Part shown: positions 1,113-30,231 of the stretch, in pieces
How positions within the stretch are numbered: the first letter of the stretch is position 1
How the letters are laid out: every line of letters begins with the position of its first letter
Virus record (IMG/VR): IMGVR_UViG_2718218135_000004
Strand: one strand, 5' to 3'
Source: a virus
Lineage: Duplodnaviria; Heunggongvirae; Uroviricota; Caudoviricetes
Length of the DNA: 37,570 nt
Position numbers and translations under genes: made by a program
The notes under the pieces: model-generated
Seen by the model: the letters and a program-made list of their open reading frames with translations, nothing else
The model's database searches: none
Told to the model about the DNA's origin: nothing

Positions 1113-1381
1113 TCGTTCCTCCTGACACTGCGTCTATCGAACACATTTTTCGCCAGTGTGGCGTTCAGTAAGATAAAGCCGCTTCGCATTCCATGCTAAT
1201 ATAGGCCAACGCAATTCATATAGCCGTTGATACCTAATGTGATTACACTAGTAAAATATATTGTTACTTTACTATCGTTTAGGTGCGCTGAATGAATCTG
1301 CGCCCTGAATTCTGGTAAAAAACATTATCGTAAATTACCATTTCTTTCAACAGCTTACTAGTAAACAAGAAGTTAGCCTCC

Positions 1382-3067
1382 GTGAATATAAACGTCGCCG
1401 AATTGTTAAATGGGAATTACATTCTGTTATTATTTGTGGTCCTCGCGCTTGGGCTATGTCTCGGAAAGTTACGACTTGGTTCGATCCAACTGGGTAATTC
1501 CATTGGCGTTTTAGTCGTATCGCTGTTATTAGGCCAACAACATTTCAGCATTAACACCGATGCGCTTAATCTTGGCTTTATGCTGTTTATTTTCTGCGTC
1601 GGGGTCGAAGCCGGACCGAACTTTTTTTCCATTTTTTTTCGCGATGGGAAAAATTACCTAATGTTAGCACTGGTGATGGTTGGCAGTGCGCTGGTGATCG
1701 CCTTAGGGTTAGGTAAGCTGTTTGGCTGGGATATTGGCCTGACGGCCGGTATGTTAGCAGGCTCTATGACGTCGACACCGGTTCTGGTCGGTGCTGGCGA
1801 TACACTGCGTCATTCCGGCATGGAAAGCAGGCAGCTCTCACTGGCACTGGATAATCTGAGCCTCGGGTATGCCTTAACCTATTTAATCGGTCTGGTGAGT
1901 TTGATTGTTGGTGCGCGTTACTTGCCGAAATTGCAGCATCAGGACTTACAGACCAGCGCCCAGCAAATCGCCCGCGAACGTGGCCTGGACACTGATGCCA
2001 ACCGTAAGGTTTATTTACCGGTGATCCGCGCCTATCGCGTCGGCCCGGAGCTGGTGGCCTGGACCGACGGCAAAAATCTGCGTGAACTGGGTATTTATCG
2101 ACAAACCGGCTGCTACATTGAACGTATTCGACGTAACGGGATTCTGGCAAATCCAGACGGTGATGCCGTGCTACAAATGGGCGATGAAATAGCGTTGGTA
2201 GGCTATCCCGACGCCCATGCCCGACTCGATCCCAGCTTCCGTAACGGTAAAGAAGTTTTCGATCGTGACCTTCTCGACATGCGTATCGTCACTGAAGAAG
2301 TGGTCGTTAAAAACCATAACGCTGTAGGTAAACGTCTCGCACAACTGAAGTTGACCGATCACGGTTGCTTCCTTAACCGCGTCATTCGTAGCCAGATTGA
2401 GATGCCGATAGATGACAACGTCGTGCTTAACAAAGGTGACGTTTTACAAGTCAGCGGTGATGCCCGTCGCGTAAAAACCATCGCCGATCGCATCGGCTTT
2501 ATCTCGATTCACAGCCAGGTCACTGACCTGCTGGCATTTTGCGCCTTCTTTGTTATTGGGCTGATGATCGGGATGATCACCTTCCAGTTCAGCACATTCA
2601 GTTTCGGCATGGGGAACGCTGCCGGGTTGTTATTCGCCGGAATTATGCTGGGCTTTATGCGTGCTAACCACCCGACCTTCGGTTACATTCCGCAAGGTGC
2701 ATTAAGCATGGTGAAAGAGTTCGGCTTGATGGTGTTTATGGCAGGCGTTGGTCTGAGCGCCGGTAGCGGTATTAATAACGGCCTGGGCGCGATTGGCGGT
2801 CAGATGTTGATTGCCGGATTAATTGTCAGTCTTGTGCCCGTGGTTATCTGTTTCTTGTTCGGTGCTTATGTATTGCGAATGAACCGCGCACTGTTGTTCG
2901 GCGCAATGATGGGCGCACGCACCTGCGCGCCGGCAATGGAGATCATCAGTGATACAGCTCGCAGTAACATCCCTGCGCTGGGCTATGCGGGCACCTACGC
3001 AATCGCCAACGTCCTGCTGACGCTGGCAGGGACAATCATCGTCATGGTATGGCCAGGATTAGGATAA
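1382..3067 (+). CDS. ybjL: putative AAE-family transporter YbjL (561 aa)
   Basis: 561-aa ORF from GTG 1382; N- and C-terminal TM blocks flanking a soluble central region; T7/T8 homopolymers at 1621-1645 read through in frame. Confidence 0.85.
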
Positions 3068-3179
3068 AACTGAAGTTGCCCTGAAAATGAAATTTTTTTG
3101 CACAACCGCAGAACTTTTCCGCAGGGCATCAGTCTTAATTAGTGCCACTGCTTTTCTTTGATGTCCCCATTTTGTGGAG

Positions 3180-9276: not shown

Positions 9277-10449
9277 TTACGCGCTGACCTGGCTGGAGAA
9301 ATTCACCAGGTACTGATCGGTGATGCGCTGACGCAGCATCAGGTTTTCAAGTGGCGGCACTGGCGTGTAGTCGTAGTCGATGGTGAGTTTTCCGGCTTTC
9401 AGCGTGTCTTTGTCGTTCACCGACTCATCCAGCCAGCAATCACCACCAATGAGATAGCCCTGACTGACCAGGCTGCGCATTTTGGCGCGGATACCCTCGA
9501 TAATGTCGCGGGCCAGCGACGGATTCAGCGGTTTATCCACCGCCCACATGTGCGCTTCTGCCATCGTGTCCGTCAGCACCTGCGCCGTGCGGGTGTAGTT
9601 TTCGAAGGCAAAGAGCGGGTCATCACTCAGGCAGCGGGAACCCCAGAAGCGAAAACCGTCTTTGCGGATAAGGGTGGTGACGTCTTTCTGGTTCAGCAGT
9701 CCCGCATCGGTTGCCGGGTCCTGCAGATCCCAGAACACATCAGCAGAAATTCCGGTGACACCGTTAACGCCCACGTTGGACAAGCTTTTGTGCCATCCGG
9801 TCTGCTCGTCAATTTTGGCGCGCAGACCAAGCGCACGGGCGGTGGCATAAGCCGTTGCTTCGGCATTCAGCACCGTGTCCCAGCCAGTAAAGTCGGGCCA
9901 GATCAGCATTCCTTCACGCTGACTGAAGTTTTCACGGTAAGTGATTGCTTCCTGCACTGTCTTGCAACCATACGCTGACAGGTAAGCAAATCCACGCAGG
10001 CTTTGCGCCACGCTCAGCAACTCAGTAGCTACCGCCTTCGTGTCGTGACCTGGCACGCCGAGAATGCGCGGTTTAACGCCGAGCTGTGACTGGGCAGATA
10101 ACAGGGCTTTCATGCCTGTTTTTTTACCTTCAGCGGTCACTGCTCCGATGATATTGGTCGTGGTTTCTTCTTCCGTTTCACCCTGCGGCACACGCACAAC
10201 AACGGTCACGGGTTTTGCCTGGTCAGCGATGGCATCCAGCGAACGAGCCAGCGTGCCTGACTCACCCGCTTTACCGCTGGCAGTCAGCACATCAGTGAGC
10301 AGCACGGGTTTATTAAGAGGAAACATTTTTGCATCGGCATCATCGCCCGTGCAGACCATACCCACGATGGCGGTGCTCACCGTGGTAATGGATCGGGTGC
10401 CTTCGTTGACTTCAACAACGCGCACCCCGTGGTGGTAATCCTGAGCCAT
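9277..10449 (-). CDS. FI: contractile tail sheath protein gpFI-like
   Basis: 390-aa ORF, first gene of the F operon, Ogr-type dyad upstream. Confidence 0.9.
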
Positions 10450-10543: not shown

Positions 10544-10591
10544 AAATGACGGTATTTGTCTGCTTTCAGGGATAATCAAAATAAAGCTGAT

Positions 10592-11158
10592 TCAGGGAGA
10601 TTTATTGTTCTTATTTGCCGGAAATTTTCGATAAATGGTAGAAACGCCTACATCAAAAATCAGTGCAATACGCTGTCTTGATTCTCCGGCCTCGAGTAAA
10701 CGCCCAATCTGTGCCCACTGTTCGCTGGTCAACTTAGGACGGCGTCCACCTACTCTGCCTTTAGCACGAGCTGCAGCCAGCCCCGCCCTGGTACGTTCAA
10801 CTATCAGTTCGCGTTCCATTTCAGCCAGGGCACCCATGACATGAAAAAAGAAACGGCCCATTGGGGTGCTGGTATCAATACTGTCAGTCAGGCTTCGGAA
10901 ATTCACGCCACGCTGGCGCAGCTCTTCTATCAGCGTAACAAGATGCCGCATACTGCGCCCCAGTCTGTCCAGCTTCCAGACAACCAGCGTGTCTCCTGCC
11001 GATAGTGTCCTGAGCAGCTTTTTCAGCCCCGGTCTGTCGGACTTGGTGCCACTGATTTTATCCTCAAAAATCCGCTCACATCCCGCACAGTTCAGTGCAT
11101 TGCGTTGCAAATCGGTGTTCTGGTCATTTGTTGACACGCGTACATAGCCAATAAGCAT
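10592..11158 (-). CDS. pin: serine DNA invertase (Hin/Gin/Cin/Pin family)
   Basis: MLIGYVRVSTNDQNTDLQ N-terminus with catalytic Ser, resolvase core, C-terminal HTH (VSTIYRKF); recalled close similarity to e14 Pin. Confidence 0.9.
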   Translation of the reverse strand: MLIGYVRVSTNDQNTDLQRNALNCAGCERIFEDKISGTKSDRPGLKKLLRTLSAGDTLVVWKLDRLGRSMRHLVTLIEELRQRGVNFRSLTDSIDTSTPMGRFFFHVMGALAEMERELIVERTRAGLAAARAKGRVGGRRPKLTSEQWAQIGRLLEAGESRQRIALIFDVGVSTIYRKFPANKNNKSP

Positions 11159-11213
11159 GATCATCCCCCTGAATAAAAACCGGAGATGATGCCAGTTAGC
11201 CGTTATCTCTGCA

Positions 11214-11239
11214 TTTTCATAAACGTTGGTTTGGGAGAA
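11214..11239 (-). repeat. 26-bp invertase crossover site (left inverted repeat)
   Basis: Reverse complement TTCTCCCAAACCAACGTTTATGAAAA; first 14 nt identical to the site at 13111-13136; two 12-bp half-sites around central AA. Confidence 0.8.
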
Positions 11240-11578
11240 GCGGCTAAAAGGAATGTAGGGACAGGGGCGAATCAGATACCTGATATGGGTAGCTTCACGC
11301 TTTCTGTTTCAGGTACTGGATATCAAAAATTACCATCAGGTTTTATTCTTCAGTGGGGCTCAATCGGCGCACCAGGCATTGCACAGGATGTAGTAACCCA
11401 TTTTCCGATTGCATTTCCAAACAGATGTCTGCGTGTTTTGGTCTCACAAGACTACACACCAGATAGCGGGGCTGTTGGTTATATTGCCTGCGCAGGTTTT
11501 AGTGCCGACCCGGTTAAATTTATATCCAGAGCCAGTACTCCTGGCCTCGGCGCTTCATTTTTAGCGTTAGGCTGTTAA
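11240..11578 (+). CDS. alternative tail-fibre C-terminal segment (Sv'-like; promoterless, expressed only after inversion)
   Basis: Frame runs through the crossover site encoding ..NVGLGE|AAKRN..; after inversion it fuses in frame to the H constant region ending ..TYLGLGE. Confidence 0.7.
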
Positions 11579-11599
11579 TTTAGCTATATGGAGTGAAAA

Positions 11600-12040
11600 A
11601 TGAATTACATATATTCCGCGACTACAAACTCTTTCTATCCGCTGGAGATGAAAGAGGATTACACTCAAGCTGACTCATGGCCAGATGATGCTGTTGAAGT
11701 TGATGAGCAAGCGTATATTGAGTTTTCCGGATTACCGCCGAAAGGAAAAATCCGTATCGCTGGAGAAAATGGTTTTCCTGCATGGTCCGAAATTCCACCA
11801 CCAACACATGAGGAACAAATTGCTGCAGCCGAATTGGAGAAGCAGCAATTGATTAATCAGGCCAACGATTATATGAACAGTAAACAATGGCCTGGTAAAG
11901 CGGCTATTGGTCGTCTGAAAGGTGACGAACTGGCGCAATATAATTTGTGGCTGGATTACCTGGACGCACTGGAACTGGTCGATACTTCCGGTGCGCCAGA
12001 TATTGAATGGCCTACGCCTCCGGCAGTTCAGGCCAGATGA
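11600..12040 (+). CDS. alternative tail fibre assembly protein (Tfa/U'-like)
   Basis: 146-aa ORF following the Sv' segment; shares C-terminal motif (TSxAPDIxWPxxP) with the convergent Tfa at 12012-12614. Confidence 0.8.
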   Translation: MNYIYSATTNSFYPLEMKEDYTQADSWPDDAVEVDEQAYIEFSGLPPKGKIRIAGENGFPAWSEIPPPTHEEQIAAAELEKQQLINQANDYMNSKQWPGKAAIGRLKGDELAQYNLWLDYLDALELVDTSGAPDIEWPTPPAVQAR

Positions 12041-12614: not shown

Positions 12615-14173
12615 TATGCAGCCCTCACGATATACGCAAATGCCAGGTTCCGTGGTCTGGTTTCTTTAATTAAAGAGGAGGCATCAGGTGAACTCACTGA
12701 TTCAGCACCATTTCTTCCACCAGTGGTATAAGTAAAAACTCTTTCACTGTTAGACCAGTAATCCACACCAACTGTTTTTGCTGATGAAAAAATGGTTTCA
12801 TCAGATATAACCTGTTCTATTCCATACGGGATATTAGTAACTGACCCCACTTTTGTAGGTATTCCATGATTATGAGAAATTACTGCATGCTCTTGATTCG
12901 TTAATAAAGTACGACCGCTATCCACTCCACGCCCGTCATCCCAGCCACGAATAAACTCACCACGTAAATCAGGCAATTTATTTGTCGGATAAGCCTTTGC
13001 CAGTTCCGGGTATTCTTCAGCAGAAAAAGCGGCACCGTTGCATTTCAGCCAGCCTGTTGGCGGAGTGGCGGAAGGCCACGGAACAGGCACGCCAACGGGT
13101 AATGCCGAACCTTCTCCCAAACCAAGGTATGTGAGAAGACCTGCTACATCCTTTCCACTCAAATTAGTCAGCGTATTGTCCAGCGGTTGTTTACCTGCCA
13201 GCGCATTAAGCATTGTCGTGGCAAAGTTCGGATCATTCCCCAGTGCCGCCGCCAGTTCGTTCAGTGTATCCAGTGCCTCAGGTGCAGAACCCACCATTGC
13301 TGCAATCGCCGATTTCACAAAAGCCGTAGTGGCAATCTGTGTATTGTTGACCGACTGCGCCGCCGTGGGGGCTGTTGGCGTTCCGGTGAGTGCAGGACTC
13401 GACAGCGGCGCTTTCAGTGCCAGCGCATTGTTAATGGTGGTACTGAATTTCGGATCATTGTTAATGGCTACGGCTATTTCTTTCAGCGTGTCCAGCGTGG
13501 CTGGCGCACCATTAATAAGAGCCGTCAGTGCCGCCTGAACAAATGCGGTGGTCGCAAGCTGCGTGGTATTATTCCCCGCCGCTGGCGTTGGCGCTTTGGG
13601 AGTTCCGGTAAACGTCGGACTTTCTTTGGGTGCATACTGTGAATGCGGGTCCGGTGCGGCAAGATGTTTTGCCATCAGGTCATCCACGTACACCTTCAAC
13701 TCCAGTGCTTTGTCATCCACATACTTGCGGGTTGCCAGCACTACGGCAGGGTCGATTTTCAGGGTGATATTGTCCGTGCTGCTGGTAATCAGCACCATGC
13801 GCACGGTCTGGGTACGCCCGCTGCCTTCAGCCAGTTGCGGCTTATAGCTTTCCGGGCAGTTTCCCACGGCAATCAATGCCCCGGACTCATCAAACAGGCC
13901 CACTTCACGTATCCACCAACCGCCCTCGTTTTCAGGGATCACCTGTTCAGCAATAATCTGGCTGCTATTCTGCGGGTCGATATAAAGCATATTCAGCGCA
14001 GCCCGGCGTTTCTCATTTACCAGTGCCGTCTGCTTTGCGTCCGGCGTTGGCAATACTCCGCCGCCATCGCCCACCGCCATATGGGTAATTTTTAGCGGCA
14101 CACCGAGCGCGGCGGCGCTGGCAAGTTTCGCCGCGCCAATATCCGTCAGCAGGGTATAAAATTTTGTGCTCAT
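12614..14173 (-). CDS. H: tail fibre protein gpH-like (constant N-terminal part plus currently fused variable C-terminus)
   Basis: 519-aa ORF with repeated TTAFV..ALxxLxxAL blocks; crossover site embedded at codons TYLGLGE. Confidence 0.9.
   Translation of the reverse strand: MSTKFYTLLTDIGAAKLASAAALGVPLKITHMAVGDGGGVLPTPDAKQTALVNEKRRAALNMLYIDPQNSSQIIAEQVIPENEGGWWIREVGLFDESGALIAVGNCPESYKPQLAEGSGRTQTVRMVLITSSTDNITLKIDPAVVLATRKYVDDKALELKVYVDDLMAKHLAAPDPHSQYAPKESPTFTGTPKAPTPAAGNNTTQLATTAFVQAALTALINGAPATLDTLKEIAVAINNDPKFSTTINNALALKAPLSSPALTGTPTAPTAAQSVNNTQIATTAFVKSAIAAMVGSAPEALDTLNELAAALGNDPNFATTMLNALAGKQPLDNTLTNLSGKDVAGLLTYLGLGEGSALPVGVPVPWPSATPPTGWLKCNGAAFSAEEYPELAKAYPTNKLPDLRGEFIRGWDDGRGVDSGRTLLTNQEHAVISHNHGIPTKVGSVTNIPYGIEQVISDETIFSSAKTVGVDYWSNSERVFTYTTGGRNGAESVSSPDASSLIKETRPRNLAFAYIVRAA
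13111..13136 (+). repeat. 26-bp invertase crossover site (right inverted repeat, inside H)
   Basis: TTCTCCCAAACCAAGGTATGTGAGAA; internal dyad of 12-bp half-sites around central AA; encodes LGLGE in the H frame. Confidence 0.8.
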
Positions 14174-14775
14174 GGATTCACTCTCATTGTGTCAATAACA
14201 TGGACCGCCCCGCCTTCATGCGCGGTGCCACCGGAAATAATCGTTTCGTTGATATACGGATAGATCGTGATTTCTTCGCCAAGATAACTGGCGGCTCCCA
14301 CCCAATGCGGGCCGCTGGTCTGCAGATTGATGGACATGCCGATCATGTGACGGCTACATGGTTTGGCATCGCTTATCAGCCGCTCAAGTTCCAGATAGGT
14401 ATCTTCAGTGATGCCCTGGTCCTGCACGCCGATGTCCAGGCGAAACGTGCCCGGTGTTTCTCCGGTCTGCCACCACTCAATAATGCGGATCAGAAAGCCG
14501 AACGGCTCCACCACCCGCCGCACGGCACTGGTGGTCCCTTTATGCTGATGAATATAAAAAGCATCCTTCACTACCTGGCGTTTGACGCTTTCTGTCCAGC
14601 CTTCGTCCCAGCGATCCACAGAGAACGCCCAGGCGAGATAAGGCAGGAAGCTGACCGGGCAGGTAGCCGGATTCCACAAGTCACGCAGCGGCACCTGCAG
14701 ATCAGAAATCCCGCTGCACGTTTGCGCCAGTCGGCGCTCCAGTGAAGTTGACCCCGATGGCAGCAGACTATTCAT
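14170..14775 (-). CDS. I: baseplate assembly protein gpI-like
   Basis: 201-aa ORF between J and H, P2 order. Confidence 0.85.
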   Translation of the reverse strand: MNSLLPSGSTSLERRLAQTCSGISDLQVPLRDLWNPATCPVSFLPYLAWAFSVDRWDEGWTESVKRQVVKDAFYIHQHKGTTSAVRRVVEPFGFLIRIIEWWQTGETPGTFRLDIGVQDQGITEDTYLELERLISDAKPCSRHMIGMSINLQTSGPHWVGAASYLGEEITIYPYINETIISGGTAHEGGAVHVIDTMRVNP

Positions 14776-15676
14776 CCGTTCCCCCGTTGGTCACGCTCCA
14801 CTGCGTACATGATGCCGCCTGCGTTTTGTTCAAAACCACATCCGCCAGCGGCGAAGCCAGCTCCACACGCTGCACACCCTCAACATGCAGGGCGGCAAAG
14901 ATGGCGCTACGGCGAATATCCCGACCAAGCCGCGTCTGACTGGCGATGTACTTCTGCAGGCTGGCTTTTGCCGCTGCCATTACCGGCTCTGCTTCCGGCC
15001 CCGGATAGAGAAAAATGGTGGCTTCCACGCGGTACGGTATGATTTCTGCGCTGCGAACCGTCAGACGGTCAGCCACCGGGCGGACGTTCTCACTGTTCAG
15101 GGCGTTCTCCACCACATCCAGCAGGTCTTTTTCTGCTGTTCCGTCGCCTTCGCGGCTAAGGACAGTCAGTACCACCTCTGCAGGTGCCGGGCTGGTTGCA
15201 CTGGCATCCGCCACCCGACCGTCGGCGCTTCGGGCATGAAATTCATAAGCTGCGGTTGGCCCCGCAACCGAAAGCCCTTCAAAAGCCGCAGGCACACGCA
15301 GGCGTAACGCTTCATCGCTTTCCATCACAGCCGCAACGGGTGGCACAGCGTCATTATCAGCAGGCGTCACCGTCAGGCGTTTCACGTTGTAGTTGGCAGC
15401 GAGCTGGTCAAGATCGCCGCCCATCGCGTAAGCCACCATCACAGCATGCGCGGCTTCGTTAATGCGCTGGCGCAGAAGCAACTCACGGTAAGCGTTCTCC
15501 TGAAGCAATTTGGTGACGGGTTCAGATTCCAGTTCCAGCGTGCGGATCACTGCTTCCTGCTCATCTTTCGGATGAAGCGCAACAAATTCGGCCTTGCGTT
15601 CGGCAAGCAGCGTCTCAAAGTCCGGCACATCTACAATCTGCGGCGCAGGCAACTGCGAAAGGTCAATCACTGCCAT
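14768..15676 (-). CDS. J: baseplate assembly protein gpJ-like
   Basis: Start chosen at internal MAVIDLSQLPAP (15676); ORF-track start 15715 is an extension. Confidence 0.85.
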   Translation of the reverse strand: MAVIDLSQLPAPQIVDVPDFETLLAERKAEFVALHPKDEQEAVIRTLELESEPVTKLLQENAYRELLLRQRINEAAHAVMVAYAMGGDLDQLAANYNVKRLTVTPADNDAVPPVAAVMESDEALRLRVPAAFEGLSVAGPTAAYEFHARSADGRVADASATSPAPAEVVLTVLSREGDGTAEKDLLDVVENALNSENVRPVADRLTVRSAEIIPYRVEATIFLYPGPEAEPVMAAAKASLQKYIASQTRLGRDIRRSAIFAALHVEGVQRVELASPLADVVLNKTQAASCTQWSVTNGGTDE

Positions 15677-16022
15677 TCTCTGCTCCTGTTGATACGGAAA
15701 GGGAAACAGGCACACCGTTATTATGCCGCCCGGTCAGCTCCACCACCATTGAACCGTCAAAATTGCTGTTGATGGTGATGGAATCCAGCGTCAGCCGTGG
15801 CTCCCAGCGACTCAGCGCCACATACACTGCCGACATGACCTGCAGGCGTAATGCCGGATTTTGTGGCTGGTCTATCAGTGTCGACAACAGGGAACCATAT
15901 TCCCGACGGGCAATGCGGCTACCCTGCGGTGTCAGTAGAATGTCCCGCACCGACTGACGCAGATGGTCAATATCAGTAATGGCTTTACCGCTGGTATTGT
16001 TCATCCCGCTATAAAGCGTCAT
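15663..16022 (-). CDS. W: baseplate wedge protein gpW-like (gp25 family)
   Basis: 119-aa ORF, recalled similarity to P2 gpW (..GSR..RRxYGSLL..). Confidence 0.85.
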   Translation of the reverse strand: MTLYSGMNNTSGKAITDIDHLRQSVRDILLTPQGSRIARREYGSLLSTLIDQPQNPALRLQVMSAVYVALSRWEPRLTLDSITINSNFDGSMVVELTGRHNNGVPVSLSVSTGAENGSD

Positions 16023-16597
16023 ACCGGACCTCCAGTCGTGTCGCCGCCTTTCAGGACGCCAGTATGCTGATGCGCATCAACCACGATCCCGTTAGAACTC
16101 ATCGCTCCGCCACCCTGGGTAACGCCACCATTGATCACCACTTCGCTGTTAATGCGCGTGCGGTCAGCCTCCAGTACAAACTCACTGGTTTTCATGGTGA
16201 TGTTGTCAGCGGCCTCAATGACCATTGATTTGATGCCCCTGACATACCAGCTCCCGGTGGCGGGTTCGTATTCAAACCAGCCACCGTCAGGATGTTCTGT
16301 CACGCAGGCGTCCGCCGACGTCGACGGTGGTGCGAACTGATTCGAATAGACAGCGGGCAGCGCAAAGGCAGTCTCCAGATTGCCTCCCAGACTCAGCAGC
16401 ACCACCTGCTCACCTTCCGATGGTTTCCACCATGTGCGGGCATTACCCGCGCGCAGCGTCAGCCAGCTGATCCAGTTGGTTTCAAGGTCGCCCGTTTTCA
16501 CCCGGCAAAGCCAGTTCTCCCGGTCCACTTCGGTAACTACACCTGTTCGGATCAGATTGGTGATAAGGCGCATGATTTCGGTTAATTGTGCGTTCAT
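16019..16597 (-). CDS. V: baseplate spike protein gpV-like
   Basis: Start chosen at MNAQLTEIMRL (16597); in-frame upstream ATGs at 16615 and 16663 make the exact start uncertain. Confidence 0.85.
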   Translation of the reverse strand: MNAQLTEIMRLITNLIRTGVVTEVDRENWLCRVKTGDLETNWISWLTLRAGNARTWWKPSEGEQVVLLSLGGNLETAFALPAVYSNQFAPPSTSADACVTEHPDGGWFEYEPATGSWYVRGIKSMVIEAADNITMKTSEFVLEADRTRINSEVVINGGVTQGGGAMSSNGIVVDAHQHTGVLKGGDTTGGPV

Positions 16598-16644
16598 ACC
16601 GTATATATTAAACATTTGAAATAATATCTTCCAAACGGCATAAT

Positions 16645-16662
16645 TGTACTGAGGATGACACA
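16645..16662 (-). promoter_or_regulatory. P2-type late promoter dyad (TGT-N12-ACA), probable P_V
   Basis: TGTACTGAGGATGACACA in the V/cargo intergenic region; overlaps a sigma70-like -35 (TTGTAC) facing the cargo ATPase gene. Confidence 0.55.
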
Positions 16663-16709
16663 AATGATTATAAATTTAAGTAGCTCAACTAATAATAAAG
16701 GATACATAG

Positions 16710-17913
16710 ATGTATAAAATTCAAAGCGTCACAATTAATGGCTTTTGGCAGCGATTAAACTGTTCCTGCTCATTTAATGATGATGTAAATATTATTATAG
16801 GCCGAAATGGCACGGGTAAAACAACCTTTATGAACCTTCTGCACTCAATATTATCCCTTGATTTGGACAGTATTAACAATGCTGATTTCAATAGTGCCGA
16901 AATAAAACTTAAAGATAAAAAAAAGACAAAAACAATCAAAGTCAAAAAACTTGAAAGCGAATTCGTTATTTAACACTGATGATAGAAGAATATCTCTTAG
17001 TTATAGACGTAGAGTGCATGATGAAACAGAAGAACTAAGAACAGAACTAGCAAAACTAGTCTCGCTTTCTTCTTTATCTGTTTACAGATTAAGAAATAGT
17101 GATGATTTTGAAGTTAAAGATAAATATGGCTCTCGTTTTATCAACCCTGTTGACTATAAGTTATCAGAATTAATACAGGAACTTACAAAATATCAACTTG
17201 AACTATCCCAGAAAGCCAGAGATATCGCATTAGAACTGCAAAAAGAGGTTCTGGCATCAATACTTTATAGCAAGGAAGATATGGAGAATCCTGCTTACAA
17301 CATTAACTTTAACAAAGAGGAAGAAAAACAAAACCTCCTTAATGCATACACACAGTTAAATGCTATTGATCAAAACATTCGTAAAAAAATCAGCTTTCAT
17401 GTTGAAACAATTAATAATACCATTTCGGAATTAAAGAATAAAAGTGAAAGTGGCTTTGATATTCGTTCGATCGAAGCATTGAGAAAAACACAAAAAATAA
17501 TCAAAATGTCATTAACTTCAAAAGAGAAAACATCAAAAATATTTTCTCCAATAGAACAATTCTTAAGCATACTAAGAAATTTTATCACCGATAAAGAATT
17601 TCATTTTCAATCGGGATTGTTAGTCATAAATAACACCTATGGGCCAATAGTTTTAGAAAGTTTATCTTCTGGTGAAAAACAACTGCTAATTTTATTCATT
17701 GAGACCCTCTTGCAAAGAGGGCAACAATATATTTTCCTAACTGATGAGCCTGAGCTTTCCTTACATATTCAATGGCAAAGAAATATTATCCCTGCCATAA
17801 AAAAATTAAATCCTAATGCACAAATTATTGCTGCAACCCATTCTCCTGAAGTTGCATCTAAATATAAAAACGCCATTTTCAATATGGAGAGATTAGTCAA
17901 TGCTAATCAATGA
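16710..17913 (+). pseudogene. ABC-type ATPase (AAA_15/21-like, AriA/OLD-ATPase-like), split by a +1 frameshift at an A8 tract (16917-16924)
   Basis: Walker A GRNGTGKTT in the 87-aa N-terminal ORF; SSGEKQ, Walker B YIFLTDEPELSLH and ATHSPE in the 320-aa C-terminal ORF; the two ORFs overlap 16951-16973 in different frames. Confidence 0.7.
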
Positions 17914-18756
17914 TTCTAATGCAGAAAACTTTTCTTGGTCTAATGAAGCGGAAAATGTGATCAGTTTATTTTATGATGCTGATATTATGGTCTATGTTGA
18001 AGGTGAAGATGACATTGCTTTTTGGGAAATAATTTTTAAAAAAATGGTCGTTTTAATGTAGAAGTTCAAGATGTTGGTGGATGTGAAGCTTTACAACCAT
18101 ATATCGAAAAAATAACCTCAGGAGAAATAAACGCTATAGTTGCCAGAGATTCGGATCTAAACCATTTTTCTGACAACATAGTAAAGCATACAAATATTAT
18201 TTACACAAAGGGATATTCAATAGAAAACACAATCATTGATGAAAAAATCATATCACACATACTCAAAAACACAGGCCGTTTTTGCACGAAAAAAATGCAG
18301 GAAATAGATGTGGAAAATTGGCTTTCTAATTTCTATAGCAACATTGAGAACTTAATAATACTAGATATTCACAATCATTTAAATAAATTAGGATGCTCCG
18401 TAATTGGTGATTCCTGTGATCGTTTTATGCAATCAAGAAATTCATACAATATATGCAAGGAAAAAATAGATGAATATATCAATAGACTACCTGAATCGTT
18501 TACTACTAATGGTTTAGCAGAAAAAAACAACATTCAATTCCCAGAAAATACATCTATAAATCATTGGGTGAAAGGGCACTTTCTTTTCTCAGCATCATTA
18601 AGATTTATAACAAACTTTTTGGCATCCATCAATAAAAAAACCTCTATATCCAAGGATAGTTTTTACGCAAACATCTTGTCTGCATTTGAGATTTTTTATA
18701 CAGAAGAACATGCTGATTATAGTTATTACAATCAAAAGATAGGGGCCATCACATAA
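17900..18756 (+). pseudogene. Toprim-like (OLD/DUF4435-type, AriB-like) protein, split by a frameshift at an A7 tract (18038-18044)
   Basis: ATG 17900 overlaps the ATPase stop by 14 nt; frame 2 reads ..VYVEGEDDIAFWEIIFKK then stops at 18059-61; frame 1 is open from 18040 to 18756 (..AIVARDSD..GYSIEN..). Confidence 0.65.
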
Positions 18757-18785
18757 AAAAATAAAGGCTGGCTTTTATGCCAGCC
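18757..18785 (-). terminator. hairpin terminator between convergent cargo operon and gene S
   Basis: GGCTGGC-TTTTAT-GCCAGCC (18766-18785) with a U-run on the minus strand (plus A-run 18755-18765). Confidence 0.55.
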
Positions 18786-19233
18786 AATCCCCAGAAAATA
18801 AATTCATAATGAATATTTTTCGAATTAATTTTTCACATCCATTTAATCCAAGCAATTTTCTCTCTGCGTAACGGATCTCAGGTCCTTTGCGGCTGACGCG
18901 ATCACGTAGGCCGTAATGGTGAACGCGGGCAATGCGCTGTACCTTACCTTCAAACTGTACGCTGGCAGTATCCGCGCTGGCGGCAGTTTTCAGGTATTTT
19001 GTAGTGCGCAGCTTTGTAAACATCTGACGTTTGATCCGCCCCTTTTTACTGCGTGCTGTTACCCGTCGCGGTTCATAGCTGCTGCCGTCAGGGTTGCGCT
19101 GCATCCTGATATTATGCTGCTGTGTCCGGCGCAGTTCCTGCGACAGCTGGCGCATCATGCGGCTTCTTGCGGCTGGTTCTAGATTCGCCAGCAAGGCACT
19201 CAGCCAGTCGTCCACCTTCTGCAGTTCAGCCAC
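18775..19233 (-). CDS. S: tail completion protein gpS-like
   Basis: 152-aa ORF following R, P2 order. Confidence 0.85.
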   Translation of the reverse strand: MAELQKVDDWLSALLANLEPAARSRMMRQLSQELRRTQQHNIRMQRNPDGSSYEPRRVTARSKKGRIKRQMFTKLRTTKYLKTAASADTASVQFEGKVQRIARVHHYGLRDRVSRKGPEIRYAERKLLGLNGCEKLIRKIFIMNLFSGDWLA

Positions 19234-19678
19234 GTTTCACCGTCCACATTTCTTCAGGTTCATCGGGTTCTGCTACAGCTTCAACGCTCGACACACTGCC
19301 GTCAGTACTGACCAGCACACGTTCCGTCAGTTGCAGGTTAAGGCTGATATCACAGACATCGTTGCGCAAAATATCCACCTCAAAGGTGAATAGCTTTTCC
19401 CGTAACGCCGGGTTATTGATGGCATCGGGCTGGTTATCCCGAAGCCACAGTAAAACCGGGGCCATCAGCAGATTCTGGTCGCCGCTGAAATCCTCTATCA
19501 CCACGTTCAGGGTATAGCGGTACTCCCATGACATGGAGCTGGCCCCCGTGGCAACCAGCGAACCGTTATCCACAAACAGATGCAGTTTGTCCGGGTTATT
19601 GCGGACATAAGGCACCGCTTTATTGAGGGCGTGGCGCAGGGATTGTGGTTTGTTCACTGTTTCGCTCCTGACACGCAA
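19226..19678 (-). CDS. R: tail completion protein gpR-like
   Basis: 150-aa ORF, 8-nt overlap with S. Confidence 0.85.
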   Translation of the reverse strand: MRVRSETVNKPQSLRHALNKAVPYVRNNPDKLHLFVDNGSLVATGASSMSWEYRYTLNVVIEDFSGDQNLLMAPVLLWLRDNQPDAINNPALREKLFTFEVDILRNDVCDISLNLQLTERVLVSTDGSVSSVEAVAEPDEPEEMWTVKRG

Positions 19679-19910
19679 TAATCATGTCCACTTTGTCTGC
19701 ACAGACCGCCCAGGCGGCCTCCGTTTCATCCAGCAACGCGTTCAGATCACCGTTAGTGCGCGGCGCTGCCTGCCCCAGCCGACACGGCGTCACTCGCGGA
19801 CAACCACTGACGGTAAGCTGCACCTCCGGTGAGTGTGGGGCGTTCCCGCAGCCGGATAATGTCAGCAGGCAAAGGAGTATCAGCCCAGCGGCGTAAATCC
19901 TCGTTCTCAC
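19620..19910 (-). CDS. lysC: o-spanin lipoprotein LysC-like (Rz1-type), nested out of frame in lysB
   Basis: Signal peptide plus lipobox LTLSGC; Pro-rich mature part; begins inside lysB in another frame and extends past its stop. Confidence 0.75.
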   Translation of the reverse strand: MRTRIYAAGLILLCLLTLSGCGNAPHSPEVQLTVSGCPRVTPCRLGQAAPRTNGDLNALLDETEAAWAVCADKVDMIIACQERNSEQTTIPAPRPQ

Positions 19911-20181
19911 GTTTCAGTTCCTCAATCCGGTGTTGTCGTTGTCTCAGCAGTACACTGGTCTGTTCTGCTTCGGCATAGAGCCGCGCCTGCTCCCGGTTAT
20001 TGGTTTCAGTCAGAATGGACAGGCTGATAAGCTGGCTGTTGCTCTTTGCCAGTGCATGGCTTTTGCTCCGAAGCTCGTCTGCCTGCGTGCTGATGGTCTG
20101 GCTGGCATCAGCCAGCCGCCACGTCTGCCAGCCCAGCGCCGCCAGTAATAACGCCAGCACAACCAGCAGCAACCGGTTCAT
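19753..20181 (-). CDS. lysB: i-spanin LysB-like (Rz-type)
   Basis: N-terminal TM helix (LLLVVLALLLAALGW) followed by coiled-coil periplasmic domain. Confidence 0.8.
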   Translation of the reverse strand: MNRLLLVVLALLLAALGWQTWRLADASQTISTQADELRSKSHALAKSNSQLISLSILTETNNREQARLYAEAEQTSVLLRQRQHRIEELKRENEDLRRWADTPLPADIIRLRERPTLTGGAAYRQWLSASDAVSAGAGSAAH

Positions 20182-27596: not shown

Positions 27597-27603
27597 TTAT
27601 TCA

Positions 27604-27873
27604 TTACCAATTTCTTTTTTCGGAGTTTAGCCAATCACCGCATGGATAATATCTTGACGCCCATTCACCTTGTAAACGAGCTACAAACAGAATATCGTTA
27701 CTATCGACCCTGGCTTGGAGTCCGTCACGCAGTTGAGTTGCGGTCAGCGTTGTATCTACTAACCAAAATGATTCAAGATATTTACAGTATGTAAATTGCT
27801 TTAGATAGTCAAAAACTTCATCGTAGTTTCTTCCCGGAGCCTTCAAGTCATAGGTTATACAATAAATAGCCAT
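27604..27873 (-). CDS. hypothetical 89-aa protein (hotspot cargo)
   Basis: ORF with GGAG RBS that overlaps the stop of the upstream Zn-ribbon gene; no family recognised from sequence. Confidence 0.55.
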   Translation of the reverse strand: MAIYCITYDLKAPGRNYDEVFDYLKQFTYCKYLESFWLVDTTLTATQLRDGLQARVDSNDILFVARLQGEWASRYYPCGDWLNSEKRNW

Positions 27874-27876
27874 TCT

Positions 27877-28059
27877 CTAAGCTCCGCATTTTTTATCATT
27901 TGGGGAACATCTTAACCTGCGACATTTGCGGCAATACGATTGAGGGATCAGCCGCTCTCCTTCCATAGTTCTAAAACCAAACACTTCTTCAATTTTGTTC
28001 AAATCACCACTTGCAATAACCCCACAGCAGGGGCAGACAGCCTCAATTTGAAATGCCAT
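27877..28059 (-). CDS. small Zn-ribbon protein (about 60 aa; CPCC...CRKC)
   Basis: Start chosen at ATG 28059 with GGAG RBS; ORF-track TTG start 28122 is less likely; Cys pattern C-x-C-C ... C-x-x-C. Confidence 0.5.
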   Translation of the reverse strand: MAFQIEAVCPCCGVIASGDLNKIEEVFGFRTMEGERLIPQSYCRKCRRLRCSPNDKKCGA

Positions 28060-28699
28060 GTCTATCTCCATTCCACATGTTGAATGTAGGGTAATACTTC
28101 CTTTCAAGCAAAAATGAGACAAGGATCTTGAAACCTAATTTAAACTTGCTTGCGCGCGCTCGTATCCCCGCCACGCCTGCCCGCTTTATGTAGTAGTTTT
28201 CATGCACCTGCATGACATGAGCAAAAGCCCGCCAGTTCTGGCATGTCTTAGCCAAACCGATCCTCAAACGATCATGCGAACTCATGCAGCATAGACATGC
28301 ATGACATGAAAATCGGTCAAACCTTGAAACCAGTCATAAATATGAGCCAGCTTAATACACACTAAATAGCTGCGTCTAATACTGCTACACCTGCCGTTTA
28401 CTGACATGTGGCATGTCGCGTAAGGACAACATACTGTAGGCCAGATACAGCAGGATCAGGCGAAGAAAACGGCCCCACGCCTTACCCAGCAAGGGCCAAG
28501 GGCTAACCGAAAGTGGAGCATTATTCCGCGCAGTTATTTAGTGTCAGCTCTTTTGAGCTAAAATCAAGTTTCAACATGAGGGTCTGTGCAGGCTTTCTCA
28601 TCCCGCTAATTTATACAGCACACCTATATGGCTATGAGTTTGTCATGCCCGCTAATCCTGTTAGGATTAGCCTTGTTTTTTTACGATTGGGATAGGGAT

Positions 28700-29506
28700 A
28701 TGAAGAAATTAACTGGCGTAATTGCTTTTGCTCTGCTGCTTACTGCTTGTGACAAACCGAAGATCGATGCATCAAGCGATCAGTCGATGAAAGAGTCCAT
28801 TCAAAAAGTAAGAGAGTCCTTACCTGCAGATAAAAAAGCTCAGTTTGATGATGCAGTTAAAGTCGTTGCCTTTAGCCAAATCAACATGAGAGAGCTAATG
28901 CAGGCTGGAACGTCTTCTGGGGACGTCTACGAAACAAAAATTAAGTCAGCGTTGGAAGGTAAAACTGGTGATGAGGTTATAAATTACGCACAAACTATTC
29001 GCCTTGAGCGTGAGAAGAGAGAGAAAGAACAGGCTCTGCAAGAAATAAAAGAACTGGAAGCCAAACAAACCTCTGCAACACAGGCTGCGGAAAAAATGAA
29101 AGCCTTCAAGGTCGAACGTTCCCGTTTTTATTTCCAGAAAGAGGATTACGGCAATGATCAGCCAATTCTGGATATTAGCGTTGAAAACGGAACAGACAAA
29201 GCGGTTGCCAGAGTATTCTTCAAAGGAGTTATTGCCAGCCCAGGAAGAAGCGTCCCTTGGTTCTCTGACGTCTTCAACTATAAAATTTCTGGAGGTCTGG
29301 AACCAGGTGAGAAAGCCAACTGGAAATTAGCCCCTAATAGATACTCTGATTGGGGAAAACTTAAAGTTCCGGCTGATGCTATATTTACCGTCACAGTCAT
29401 TGGCCTTGAAGACGCAGATGGGAAATCGATCTATGGTGACGCCGAGTTTTCAGAACGCGATGCTGACAGACTGAATCAACTTAGAGATAAGTACCTTTCT
29501 AAATAA
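28700..29506 (+). CDS. lipoprotein (268 aa) with coiled-coil segment
   Basis: MKKLTGVIAFALLLTAC signal peptide plus lipobox; ORF-track start 28628 is an upstream extension. Confidence 0.7.
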   Translation: MKKLTGVIAFALLLTACDKPKIDASSDQSMKESIQKVRESLPADKKAQFDDAVKVVAFSQINMRELMQAGTSSGDVYETKIKSALEGKTGDEVINYAQTIRLEREKREKEQALQEIKELEAKQTSATQAAEKMKAFKVERSRFYFQKEDYGNDQPILDISVENGTDKAVARVFFKGVIASPGRSVPWFSDVFNYKISGGLEPGEKANWKLAPNRYSDWGKLKVPADAIFTVTVIGLEDADGKSIYGDAEFSERDADRLNQLRDKYLSK

Positions 29507-29614
29507 TCAAAATTAAAGCTACTTCAGCATAGTCCCTGAGAATATATATCAGGGACTACCAAATCACGGCAGATACCCCTTAGTTAAATAATGCTAAACG
29601 CTTAGAAAGAGACC

Positions 29615-29914
29615 ATGAAACGTATAACTTTCTCCTTTACGTTAGTAGCAATCATCATAGCCTTAGCTGGATGTGCTTTGCCAGATAAAGACGGCGACTT
29701 CGGAGCTTATGTTCATGCCTGTCAGCAATATGCATACGGAAAATCCTATGCCTTTGAGAATAGAGACTTCGCGTATAAGGTCTGTAAGGACGCGGCGAAA
29801 CTGTGGAGTGAAGAAGTTCCTGGCTATATCATCAGGCAAATTCAACTACATCCTGAAATACCCAGCGAAGAAATTAAATATGCAGCCATGGCCGGCTCTT
29901 TGGGTAACAACTAA
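29615..29914 (+). CDS. small lipoprotein (99 aa)
   Basis: MKRITFSFTLVAIIIALAGC signal peptide plus lipobox. Confidence 0.7.
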   Translation: MKRITFSFTLVAIIIALAGCALPDKDGDFGAYVHACQQYAYGKSYAFENRDFAYKVCKDAAKLWSEEVPGYIIRQIQLHPEIPSEEIKYAAMAGSLGNN

Positions 29915-29927
29915 ATCAACTTATGAG

Positions 29928-29950
29928 AAAGGGGCTTAATGCCCCTTTTC
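29928..29950. terminator. rho-independent terminator between convergent lipoprotein gene and small ORF
   Basis: AAAGGGGC-TTAAT-GCCCCTTTT stem-loop. Confidence 0.65.
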
Positions 29951-29981
29951 GGTTCCCTTATCAAGTCCTAACGAAACAAGC

Positions 29982-30170
29982 TCAACTGATTACATCCATC
30001 GACCTACTGTATTCATGGCTTCGAATTTTCGCCATCAACTCATCAGTCAATTCAGAAACCCACTGCAGAGCTAGCCCCTTCTCTTCATCACTACACTCAC
30101 TAGCCGCTACAAGCTTAAGAAAAAAATCAATGCGCTGGAGCTTCAAAGACTCCAAAAAATAGTCCTGCAT
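29982..30170 (-). CDS. small helical protein (62 aa) downstream of tandem LexA boxes; candidate SOS-induced antirepressor (Tum-like position)
   Basis: ATG 30170 with AGGAGG RBS 4 nt upstream; ORF-track start 30272 would lie upstream of the LexA boxes. Confidence 0.55.
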   Translation of the reverse strand: MQDYFLESLKLQRIDFFLKLVAASECSDEEKGLALQWVSELTDELMAKIRSHEYSRSMDVIS

Positions 30171-30196
30171 CTTTCCTCCTATAACACCATACGCAA

Positions 30197-30231
30197 TACT
30201 GTACATATAAACACTGTTTATATTTACAGTA
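30197..30231 (-). promoter_or_regulatory. two overlapping LexA (SOS) boxes
   Basis: CTGT-ACATATAA-ACAC (30199-30214) and perfect CTGT-TTATATTT-ACAG (30214-30229), immediately upstream of the 62-aa ORF. Confidence 0.65.

Follow-up and report, generated by a model that had tools for sequence, protein, structure and literature searches.

A probable PARIS cassette, broken in both genes, at the S–V junction of the P2-like prophage of Escherichia coli S56

In the P2-like prophage of Escherichia coli S56, an AT-rich island between the late genes V and S carries two overlapping genes, which we identify, with a probability of about 0.85 and on the grounds of sequence and predicted fold, as a PARIS cassette (ariA and ariB) that sits there as a moron and is present in S56 as a pair of pseudogenes. 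The window analyzed here is the whole stretch of 37,570 nucleotides recorded as IMGVR_UViG_2718218135_000004; it is the reverse complement of positions 2887729–2925298 of the S56 chromosome (NZ_CP010242.1). An earlier, sequence-only reading of this DNA had proposed that the island holds a coupled ABC-ATPase gene and Toprim-type gene, as horizontally acquired, PARIS-like cargo, and had left open whether the pair is a known PARIS variant or a new family. The proposal is borne out by Pfam, PADLOC, Protein Data Bank (PDB), fold and hhalign comparisons, and the profile and structure searches settle the question in favor of PARIS. The S56 island is a degraded copy of a known system, at a cargo site that was already on record but has been little surveyed. 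The system itself has been known since 2022 (PMC9122126) and its mechanism was solved in 2024 (PMC11464382); the S56 island does not alter the current understanding of how the system works.

Results

The island encodes an AriA-type ATPase and an AriB-type DUF4435 protein

Intact alleles of the island, with 99.3–99.8% DNA identity to the window, are found in strains EC596 and 2014C-3075. They encode a 418-residue protein annotated as 'AAA family ATPase' and a 285-residue protein annotated as 'DUF4435 domain-containing protein' (WP_001580543 and WP_001580542 in EC596). The proteins of about 400 and 286 residues that had been predicted therefore stand after frame correction, as the prediction itself had hinted, but neither corresponds to a continuous open reading frame (ORF) in the window. 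All the ATPase motifs that had been claimed (Walker A GRNGTGKTT, the signature SSGEKQ, Walker B and the H-loop ATHSPE) are present on the plus strand, as are the Toprim-type motifs VEGEDD, ARDSD and SIEN of the second gene. Just as described, ariB begins (ATG at 17900) before the ATPase gene has ended (last base of its stop codon at 17913), and the two genes overlap by 14 nt.

The published detection rule for PARIS asks for adjacent genes with a Pfam score of at least 32 bits for AAA_15 or at least 27 bits for AAA_21, together with at least 27 bits for DUF4435 (Rousset et al. 2022; PMC9122126). The proteins of the intact alleles score 79 bits for AAA_15, 71.3 bits for AAA_21 and 95.5 bits for DUF4435, and so qualify as PARIS; their Pfam E-values of 7e-22 and 5e-27 are far beyond chance. 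The absence of ATPase and Toprim homology on profile search, against which the earlier prediction had hedged, is not the case. The PADLOC models agree: the ATPase matches AriA best (7.6e-39), and the second protein matches only AriB (4.1e-22) and AriAB (3e-6), with no other family. When the ATPase was compared by phmmer with PDB sequences, the best match was AriA of the PARIS complex of E. coli B185 (8ux9_B, E=1.5e-20), with retron and Septu PtuA proteins far behind. Alignment to B185 AriA revealed that the Walker A lysine (K39 in B185) and the Walker B glutamate (E393 in B185) are kept, as K37 in GRNGTGKTT and E365 in FLTDEPE.

Since a sequence search of the PDB found no AriB, the link of the DUF4435 protein to AriB had to come through a fold search and hhalign. 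The AlphaFold model of the protein has a predicted local distance difference test (pLDDT) score of 91.7, and B185 AriB (8ux9_A and 8v46_D) gave the only Foldseek matches in the PDB at E<=1e-3 (E about 1e-4, probability 1.00), followed by the C-terminal regions of OLD nucleases. In a 40-member DUF4435 family, E34, D37, D38, D84, D86, E109 and N110 are invariant. When the profile of this family was aligned by hhalign with the AriB sequences of E. coli B185 and O42, taken from Rousset's Table S2A, the VEGxxD, DxD/E, SxEN and GH motifs came into register, and E34, D38, D84, D86 and E109 fell on B185 E26, D30, D88, E90 and E122. In B185 AriB, these five residues form the metal-binding and catalytic set of the Toprim domain (Burman et al., PMC11464382).

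Several observations weigh against this identification. The phmmer search of PDB sequences with the DUF4435 protein returned no match at E<=1, and the 40-sequence family profile, searched against the PDB, returned no AriB and only a spurious match to IMP4 (E=2.2). The Foldseek matches to AriB have template modeling (TM) scores of only 0.54–0.55, with 13–16% identity in the fold alignment, and the hhalign scores are weak (E=0.018 for B185 AriB and 3.7e-4 for O42 AriB). Moreover, R28 and R31, through which B185 AriB contacts AriA, are replaced here by E36 and I39, so the details of the complex may differ; the replacement fits the reported co-evolution of AriA and AriB. As for the lesions described below, both single-base changes fall within homopolymers, where sequencing errors could account for them.

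Judged from its sequence, the S56-type pair is a PARIS clade distant from the two tested ones, those of B185 and O42. PARIS is class 4 of the OLD family. Eleven PARIS clades have been described (PMC11464382), and a distant clade fits that picture. A search of the literature and of the supplementary files of both PARIS papers for the RefSeq accessions of the two proteins, which might have yielded a clade number or a test result, returned nothing.

Both genes are disrupted in the S56 copy

Neither reading frame is intact in S56. Relative to the alleles of EC596 and 2014C-3075, ariA has a net loss of 53 nt, which shifts its frame and cuts AriA after residue 83, thereby separating the Walker A motif from the remaining ATPase motifs, which stand in a different frame. 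In the second gene, the loss of one base from a run of A ends the native part of AriB at residue 48. The 5' fragment of ariA still scores 37.7 bits for AAA_15 and 38.6 bits for AAA_23, and its 3' fragment 56.9 bits for AAA_21 and 45.6 bits for AAA_15; the corresponding DUF4435 scores of the ariB fragments are 22.2 and 66 bits. The broken fragments therefore individually still pass the PARIS rule (AAA_15, AAA_21 and, for the 3' fragment of ariB, DUF4435). The broken frames bear on the function of the S56 copy and not on its family membership. Given that both ariA and ariB are truncated, the cassette is probably a pseudogene pair and should not be counted as a working module, and we would not expect defense from the S56 copy.

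An improbable alternative is that S56 carries a working PARIS and that the three indels are artefacts of sequencing or assembly. Of the lesions, two are single-base losses from homopolymers (T3 to T2 and A8 to A7), the usual type of long-read error, and the island is prone to such runs, holding 8 of the window's 17 runs of at least seven identical bases; indels aside, it differs from the EC596 copy by only two substitutions. The 52-nt internal deletion, however, is not a typical consensus error, and it is unlikely that sequencing error explains it. The comparison with EC596 over 13113–19925 shows no gaps beyond the lesions of the island, and elsewhere in the window no phage gene carries a split annotation. 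In addition, the equally AT-rich L3Cip3-type allele of strain S1 is 100.0% identical over the full 2265-nt query and is listed with one ATPase gene and one DUF4435 gene; strain S1 is presumed, from its neighboring accession number only, to come from the same submission as S56.

The lesion of ariB could also be read as the off state of a contingency tract, a phase-variable A-run by which an abortive-infection system that is costly to its host would be turned on and off. The frameshift does lie in an A8/A7 run, and effectors of such systems can burden the cell that makes them. We consider this very unlikely, as only 1 of the 30 complete E. coli genomes with any of the three alleles found at this junction has the pair annotated as split, namely S56, and as ariA of the same copy holds an irreversible 52-nt deletion. 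A run of eight A is short for efficient slippage.

The pair among ATPase–nuclease defense systems

The PARIS system of E. coli B185 ('PARIS-2'; PDB 8UX9, 8V45–8V49) supplies, in AriA and AriB, the nearest solved structures. Its two-gene operon has the same order, an AAA_15/AAA_21 ABC ATPase followed by a DUF4435/Toprim protein, with the same Walker A lysine, Walker B glutamate, signature and H-loop in AriA and the five acidic Toprim positions in AriB, and it is likewise carried by a mobile element of the P2/P4 family. The pair differs from it in the size of AriA (418 residues here, 464 in B185), of which phmmer aligns only the N-terminal 55 and the C-terminal 120 residues; in its site, the S–V junction of a P2-like phage rather than a P4 hotspot; and in that the S56 copy is broken. 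The same architecture, with the Toprim motifs FEGDDD, DQD and IEN, is found in PARIS-1 of E. coli O42 (Rousset et al. 2022), a system that showed activity only under an inducible promoter. Its hhalign match spans the Toprim half; it is P4-borne, and identity is about 25% over 100 columns.

The closest relatives at the same site are the pairs of phage vB_EcoM-813R9 and of the L3Cip3 allele, which agree with the S56 pair in position, orientation, family and gene sizes (419 and 283 residues in 813R9, 417 and 285 in L3Cip3). Identity to the S56-type proteins is 62% for AriA and 44% for AriB of 813R9, and 72% for AriB of L3Cip3. Unlike the S56 copy, these diverged pairs are intact, and their alleles are slightly commoner than the S56-type allele.

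It is very improbable that the pair belongs to another ATPase–nuclease defense family such as Septu (PtuAB), AbiL, class 1 OLD, Gabija or MADS3-4. An AAA_15/21 ABC ATPase is common to all of these (PMC11464382), and in PADLOC the ATPase also matches many models of PtuA (2.5e-23 at best), as well as mad3 (6e-19) and GajA (2.8e-13). The AriA model, however, outscores the best of the PtuA models by 51 bits, and the partner is a DUF4435 protein, with DUF3226 as the only further Pfam match and that below threshold, and not an HNH nuclease, an RloB protein or a helicase.

The individual candidates fail on the partner or on the architecture. Septu resembles the pair in its related AAA_15/21 ATPase but requires an HNH nuclease (PtuB), and the second protein has no HNH match in PADLOC or Pfam. 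AbiL requires an RloB-type (PF13707) partner, and no RloB match was found at E<=0.01. P2 Old (class 1 OLD), itself a cargo gene of P2, and Gabija GajA (class 2) also combine an ABC ATPase with a Toprim nuclease in a defense of the abortive-infection type, but as a fusion in one polypeptide, whereas here the two are encoded by separate, overlapping genes and the Toprim lies inside DUF4435. Gabija further adds a UvrD-like helicase (GajB), and no helicase gene is present between V and S. A toxin–antitoxin reading was rejected as well, given that ariA and ariB of B185 are each non-toxic on their own (PMC9122126).

The S–V junction is a cargo site

The S56 prophage looks complete, from integrase through ogr, and adjoins ybjL. 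Within it, the island stands out by its composition: its G+C content (GC) is 0.30–0.33 per 400 nt over 16598–18790, while it is 0.55–0.61 on both sides. The AT-rich block between S and V that had been delimited at these coordinates, with its genes on the strand opposite to S and V, is thus confirmed by GC and ORFs.

The accompanying statement that in P2-type genomes the S–V junction holds only the late promoter P_V is wrong. In P2 itself, the non-essential orf30 occupies this place; it is encoded on the opposite strand, between the terminator just after S and the annotated P_V activator site (P2 record). The orf30 region has been listed beside the TO and Z regions as carrying horizontally acquired genes in P2-like phages (PMC3091744). 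The S56 pair resembles orf30 in position, orientation and nature as cargo; orf30 is a single gene for 261 residues, unrelated to ariA and ariB.

In Escherichia phage 500465-1 the junction is empty and measures 68 bp, and Fels-2 and many Klebsiella phages have the span of an empty junction. Unrelated genes occupy it in Cartapus, RE-2010 and Kp4865-2, while vB_EcoM-813R9 has its ATPase and DUF4435 pair there. Of the 1,059 E. coli records with a match to the V/S backbone, we surveyed 60, spaced evenly. About 30 of the 60 junctions were empty. The others carried, by annotation, DUF6216 (in the prophage of BL21 and C43), ATPase+DUF4435, ATPase+HNH, GmrSD, TIR, SIR2, AIPR, P-loop NTPase, DUF5677 or hypothetical proteins. 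Given that about half of the sampled junctions hold such varied cargo, the S–V junction is a real cargo and defense site.

Two of these junctions deserve a remark of their own. In Kp4865-2 (locus coordinates 1525–3036), a 503-residue P-loop protein without a PADLOC match is encoded on the strand of S and V, unlike the other cargo genes seen. In the E. coli junction with a Septu-like pair by annotation (two records; 1186–3068), genes for a 409-residue AAA ATPase and a 217-residue HNH endonuclease have the orientation of the PARIS pair.

In megablast searches of 5,426 complete E. coli genomes, the island was found in three (S56, EC596 and 2014C-3075), and no match was returned from the phage collection; the phage-borne relative in vB_EcoM-813R9 was reached only through its flanking V and S genes. 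The three diverged PARIS alleles of the junction occur in 3 (S56-type) and in 9 and 18 (the other two) of these genomes. The S56-type clade is also found elsewhere: a P2-like prophage of Serratia has it at the A–Q hotspot, a P2/186-like prophage of Yersinia has it beside cI, and Vibrio and a cyanobacterium carry it outside phages. In all seven contexts examined, the ATPase gene (417–426 residues) lies directly upstream of the DUF4435 gene and overlaps it. PARIS pairs at the P2 A–Q hotspot are already present in Rousset's tables.

That the pair serves a core or regulatory function of the tail and late-gene module, as its place between late operons and an intergenic region shared with P_V might suggest, is hardly credible, since the junction is often empty or filled with unrelated genes, the pair also occurs at other hotspots and outside phages, and the S56 prophage looks otherwise complete despite its broken pair.

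The EC596 prophage (NZ_CP156718.1, 2985630–2999884), in which ariA and ariB are intact, is a rearranged remnant. Its lysC lies directly against a replication-endonuclease gene that is truncated, only part of gene D is present, and the 14-kb stretch is without the capsid, terminase and lysis genes that are annotated at the matching place in S56 and 2014C-3075. The complete-looking prophage of S56 thus holds the broken copy, whereas the remnant in EC596 holds the intact pair.

Cassette boundaries, promoters and terminator

The variable block is larger than the AT-rich block, which is real but was drawn too short: it continues beyond 18790 and stops within the 3' end of S, at about 18846. On one side, homology to the empty-junction phage ends exactly at the V ATG. 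On the other, an alignment of gpS revealed that the protein is almost invariant to residue 129 (...LLG), after which the last 19–23 residues differ completely by cargo type. The exchanged cassette therefore extends from 16598 to about 18846 (Table 1), with a GC of 0.307 against 0.57 and 0.556 in its flanks, and the gpS tail seems, from these alignments, to be swapped together with the cargo.

Table 1. Features of the S–V cassette and its borders, in coordinates of the window
Feature	Coordinates	Strand	Description and basis
Gene V	16019-16597	-	Baseplate
Variable AT-rich cassette	16598-18846	.	V start codon to about codon 129 of S; contains P_V region, ariA, ariB, terminator and gpS tail
Candidate sigma-70 promoter of ariAB	16616-16644	+	TTGAAA-17-CATAAT; 10 of 12 consensus positions, top plus-strand match; back to back with P_V
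TGT-N12-ACA dyad	16645-16662	-	Predicted Ogr/Delta activator site of the late promoter P_V driving V; from fixed offset and P2 geometry
Shine-Dalgarno-like AAGGA	16698-16702	+	7 nt upstream of the ariA ATG; read from the sequence
ariA 5' fragment	16710-16973	+	Native residues 1-83 including Walker A (K37), then 4 out-of-frame codons and stop; alignment to intact EC596
Walker A GRNGTGKTT	16800-16826	+	
ariA lesion	16959-16967	+	52 nt missing after 16959/16960 and 1 T missing (GTTTA to GTTA); pairwise alignment with intact alleles
ariA 3' fragment	~16966-17913	+	Other frame; helical region, SSGEKQ, FLTDEPE (E365), ATHSPE and stop; no Walker A
Signature SSGEKQ	17665-17682	+	
Walker B FLTDEPE	17734-17754	+	
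H-loop ATHSPE	17833-17850	+	
ariB 5' fragment	17900-18061	+	Native residues 1-48 including VEGEDD (E34, D38), then 5 out-of-frame codons and stop
VEGEDD	17996-18013	+	
ariB frameshift	18038-18044	+	A7 here, A8 in intact alleles; 1-nt deletion
ariB 3' fragment	~18043-18756	+	Other frame; ARDSD (D84, D86), SIEN (E109), GHFLFS, helical C-terminal domain and stop
ARDSD	18142-18156	+	
SIEN	18217-18228	+	
Intrinsic terminator of the late operon ending with S	18756-18785 (hairpin 18766-18785)	-	GGCTGGC-ATAAAA-GCCAGCC then TTTATTTTTT; S stop codon in the loop
Variable gpS C-terminal tail	18775-18846	-	Residues 130-152, cargo-linked; alignment; GC 0.264
Gene S	18775-19233	-	Tail completion

The regulatory signals that had been proposed to frame the pair as an autonomous unit fared less well. 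The hairpin exists, but it was called as a terminator on the minus strand only, where a T-run follows. With the S stop codon in its loop, it is thus the terminator of the S operon and not a border of the plus-strand genes; it is the counterpart of the 'terminator for O operon' that the P2 record places just after S. The promoter TTGTAC-N17-ATTATA (16644–16672) matches only 5 of 12 sigma-70 consensus positions and was returned by neither scan, and its supposed -35 element (16644–16649) overlaps the predicted activator dyad of P_V. We take TGT-N12-ACA to be the consensus of P2 late promoters (Ogr/Delta). The geometry of the dyad matches that of the activator site annotated in P2 (10239–10266, with the V start and the transcription start site at 10308), and in six of seven junction types it lies 47–48 nt from the V ATG. 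Apart from the dyad kept at this distance, the P_V region is wholly divergent between junction types; in the Septu-like junction the distance is 61 nt.

A better candidate for the ariAB promoter is TTGAAA-17-CATAAT, which recurs at the same offset in the L3Cip3 allele. It remains a candidate, since promoter-like sites are no commoner in the region than in shuffled sequences (12 against 11.2). In both the window and the L3Cip3 allele, its -10 element, which ends here at 16644, abuts the dyad. The predicted start of ariAB transcription, a few nucleotides past the -10 element, would therefore fall inside the predicted Ogr-binding dyad.

Discussion

The mode of action of an intact version can be sketched by homology with the PARIS of B185 (PMC11464382, PMC12409363), whose mechanism we carry over to the S56-type clade. 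AriA would assemble into a hexameric, ATP-dependent scaffold in which AriB monomers are sequestered and kept inactive, and both genes would be needed. A trigger made by the phage, for example the anti-restriction protein Ocr, would bind AriA in an ATP-dependent manner and release AriB, which would then dimerize and cut specific host tRNAs (Lys, Thr and Asn in B185). Translation would stop and the infection would be aborted. In the S56-type clade, the trigger and the tRNA that is cut may differ from those of B185. The intact alleles of EC596 or 813R9 are convenient material for work on the specificity of trigger and tRNA among diverged PARIS clades.

The S56 copy also carries a caution for automated counts of defense systems. 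A dead copy that passes the PARIS domain thresholds would be scored as a working one.

Surveys of P2 hotspots have focused on the A–Q (old/tin) and Z/fun loci, and the S–V (orf30) junction carries varied genes of defense type, among them PARIS, Septu-like, GmrSD, TIR, SIR2 and AIPR. We tentatively suggest, as a possibility that is still doubtful, that the junction is a fourth defense hotspot of P2-like phages, at which cassettes would be swapped together with their own P_V region and gpS tail, possibly with a shut-off of ariAB by Ogr. If this were true, the late activator of the phage could shut off the phage's own abortive-infection system when the prophage goes lytic.

Two further variable regions of the window may be described briefly. 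The A–Q (old/tin-equivalent) hotspot, at about 27600–30200, has a lower GC of 0.39–0.47 and contains a gene for a DUF6694 lipoprotein (28628–29506, plus strand), together with several small ORFs without a match to defense models; an 89-residue ORF (27604–27873, minus strand) has a weak Cas2-like PADLOC match (E=5e-4). The Z/fun-equivalent region, at about 10590–12040 between the tail fiber genes and the sheath gene, contains a recombinase-family gene of the invertase type (RefSeq). Beside it lie an oppositely oriented tail-fiber-assembly gene and a gp53-like fragment, a layout that resembles an invertible host-range switch of the Gin/Cin type.

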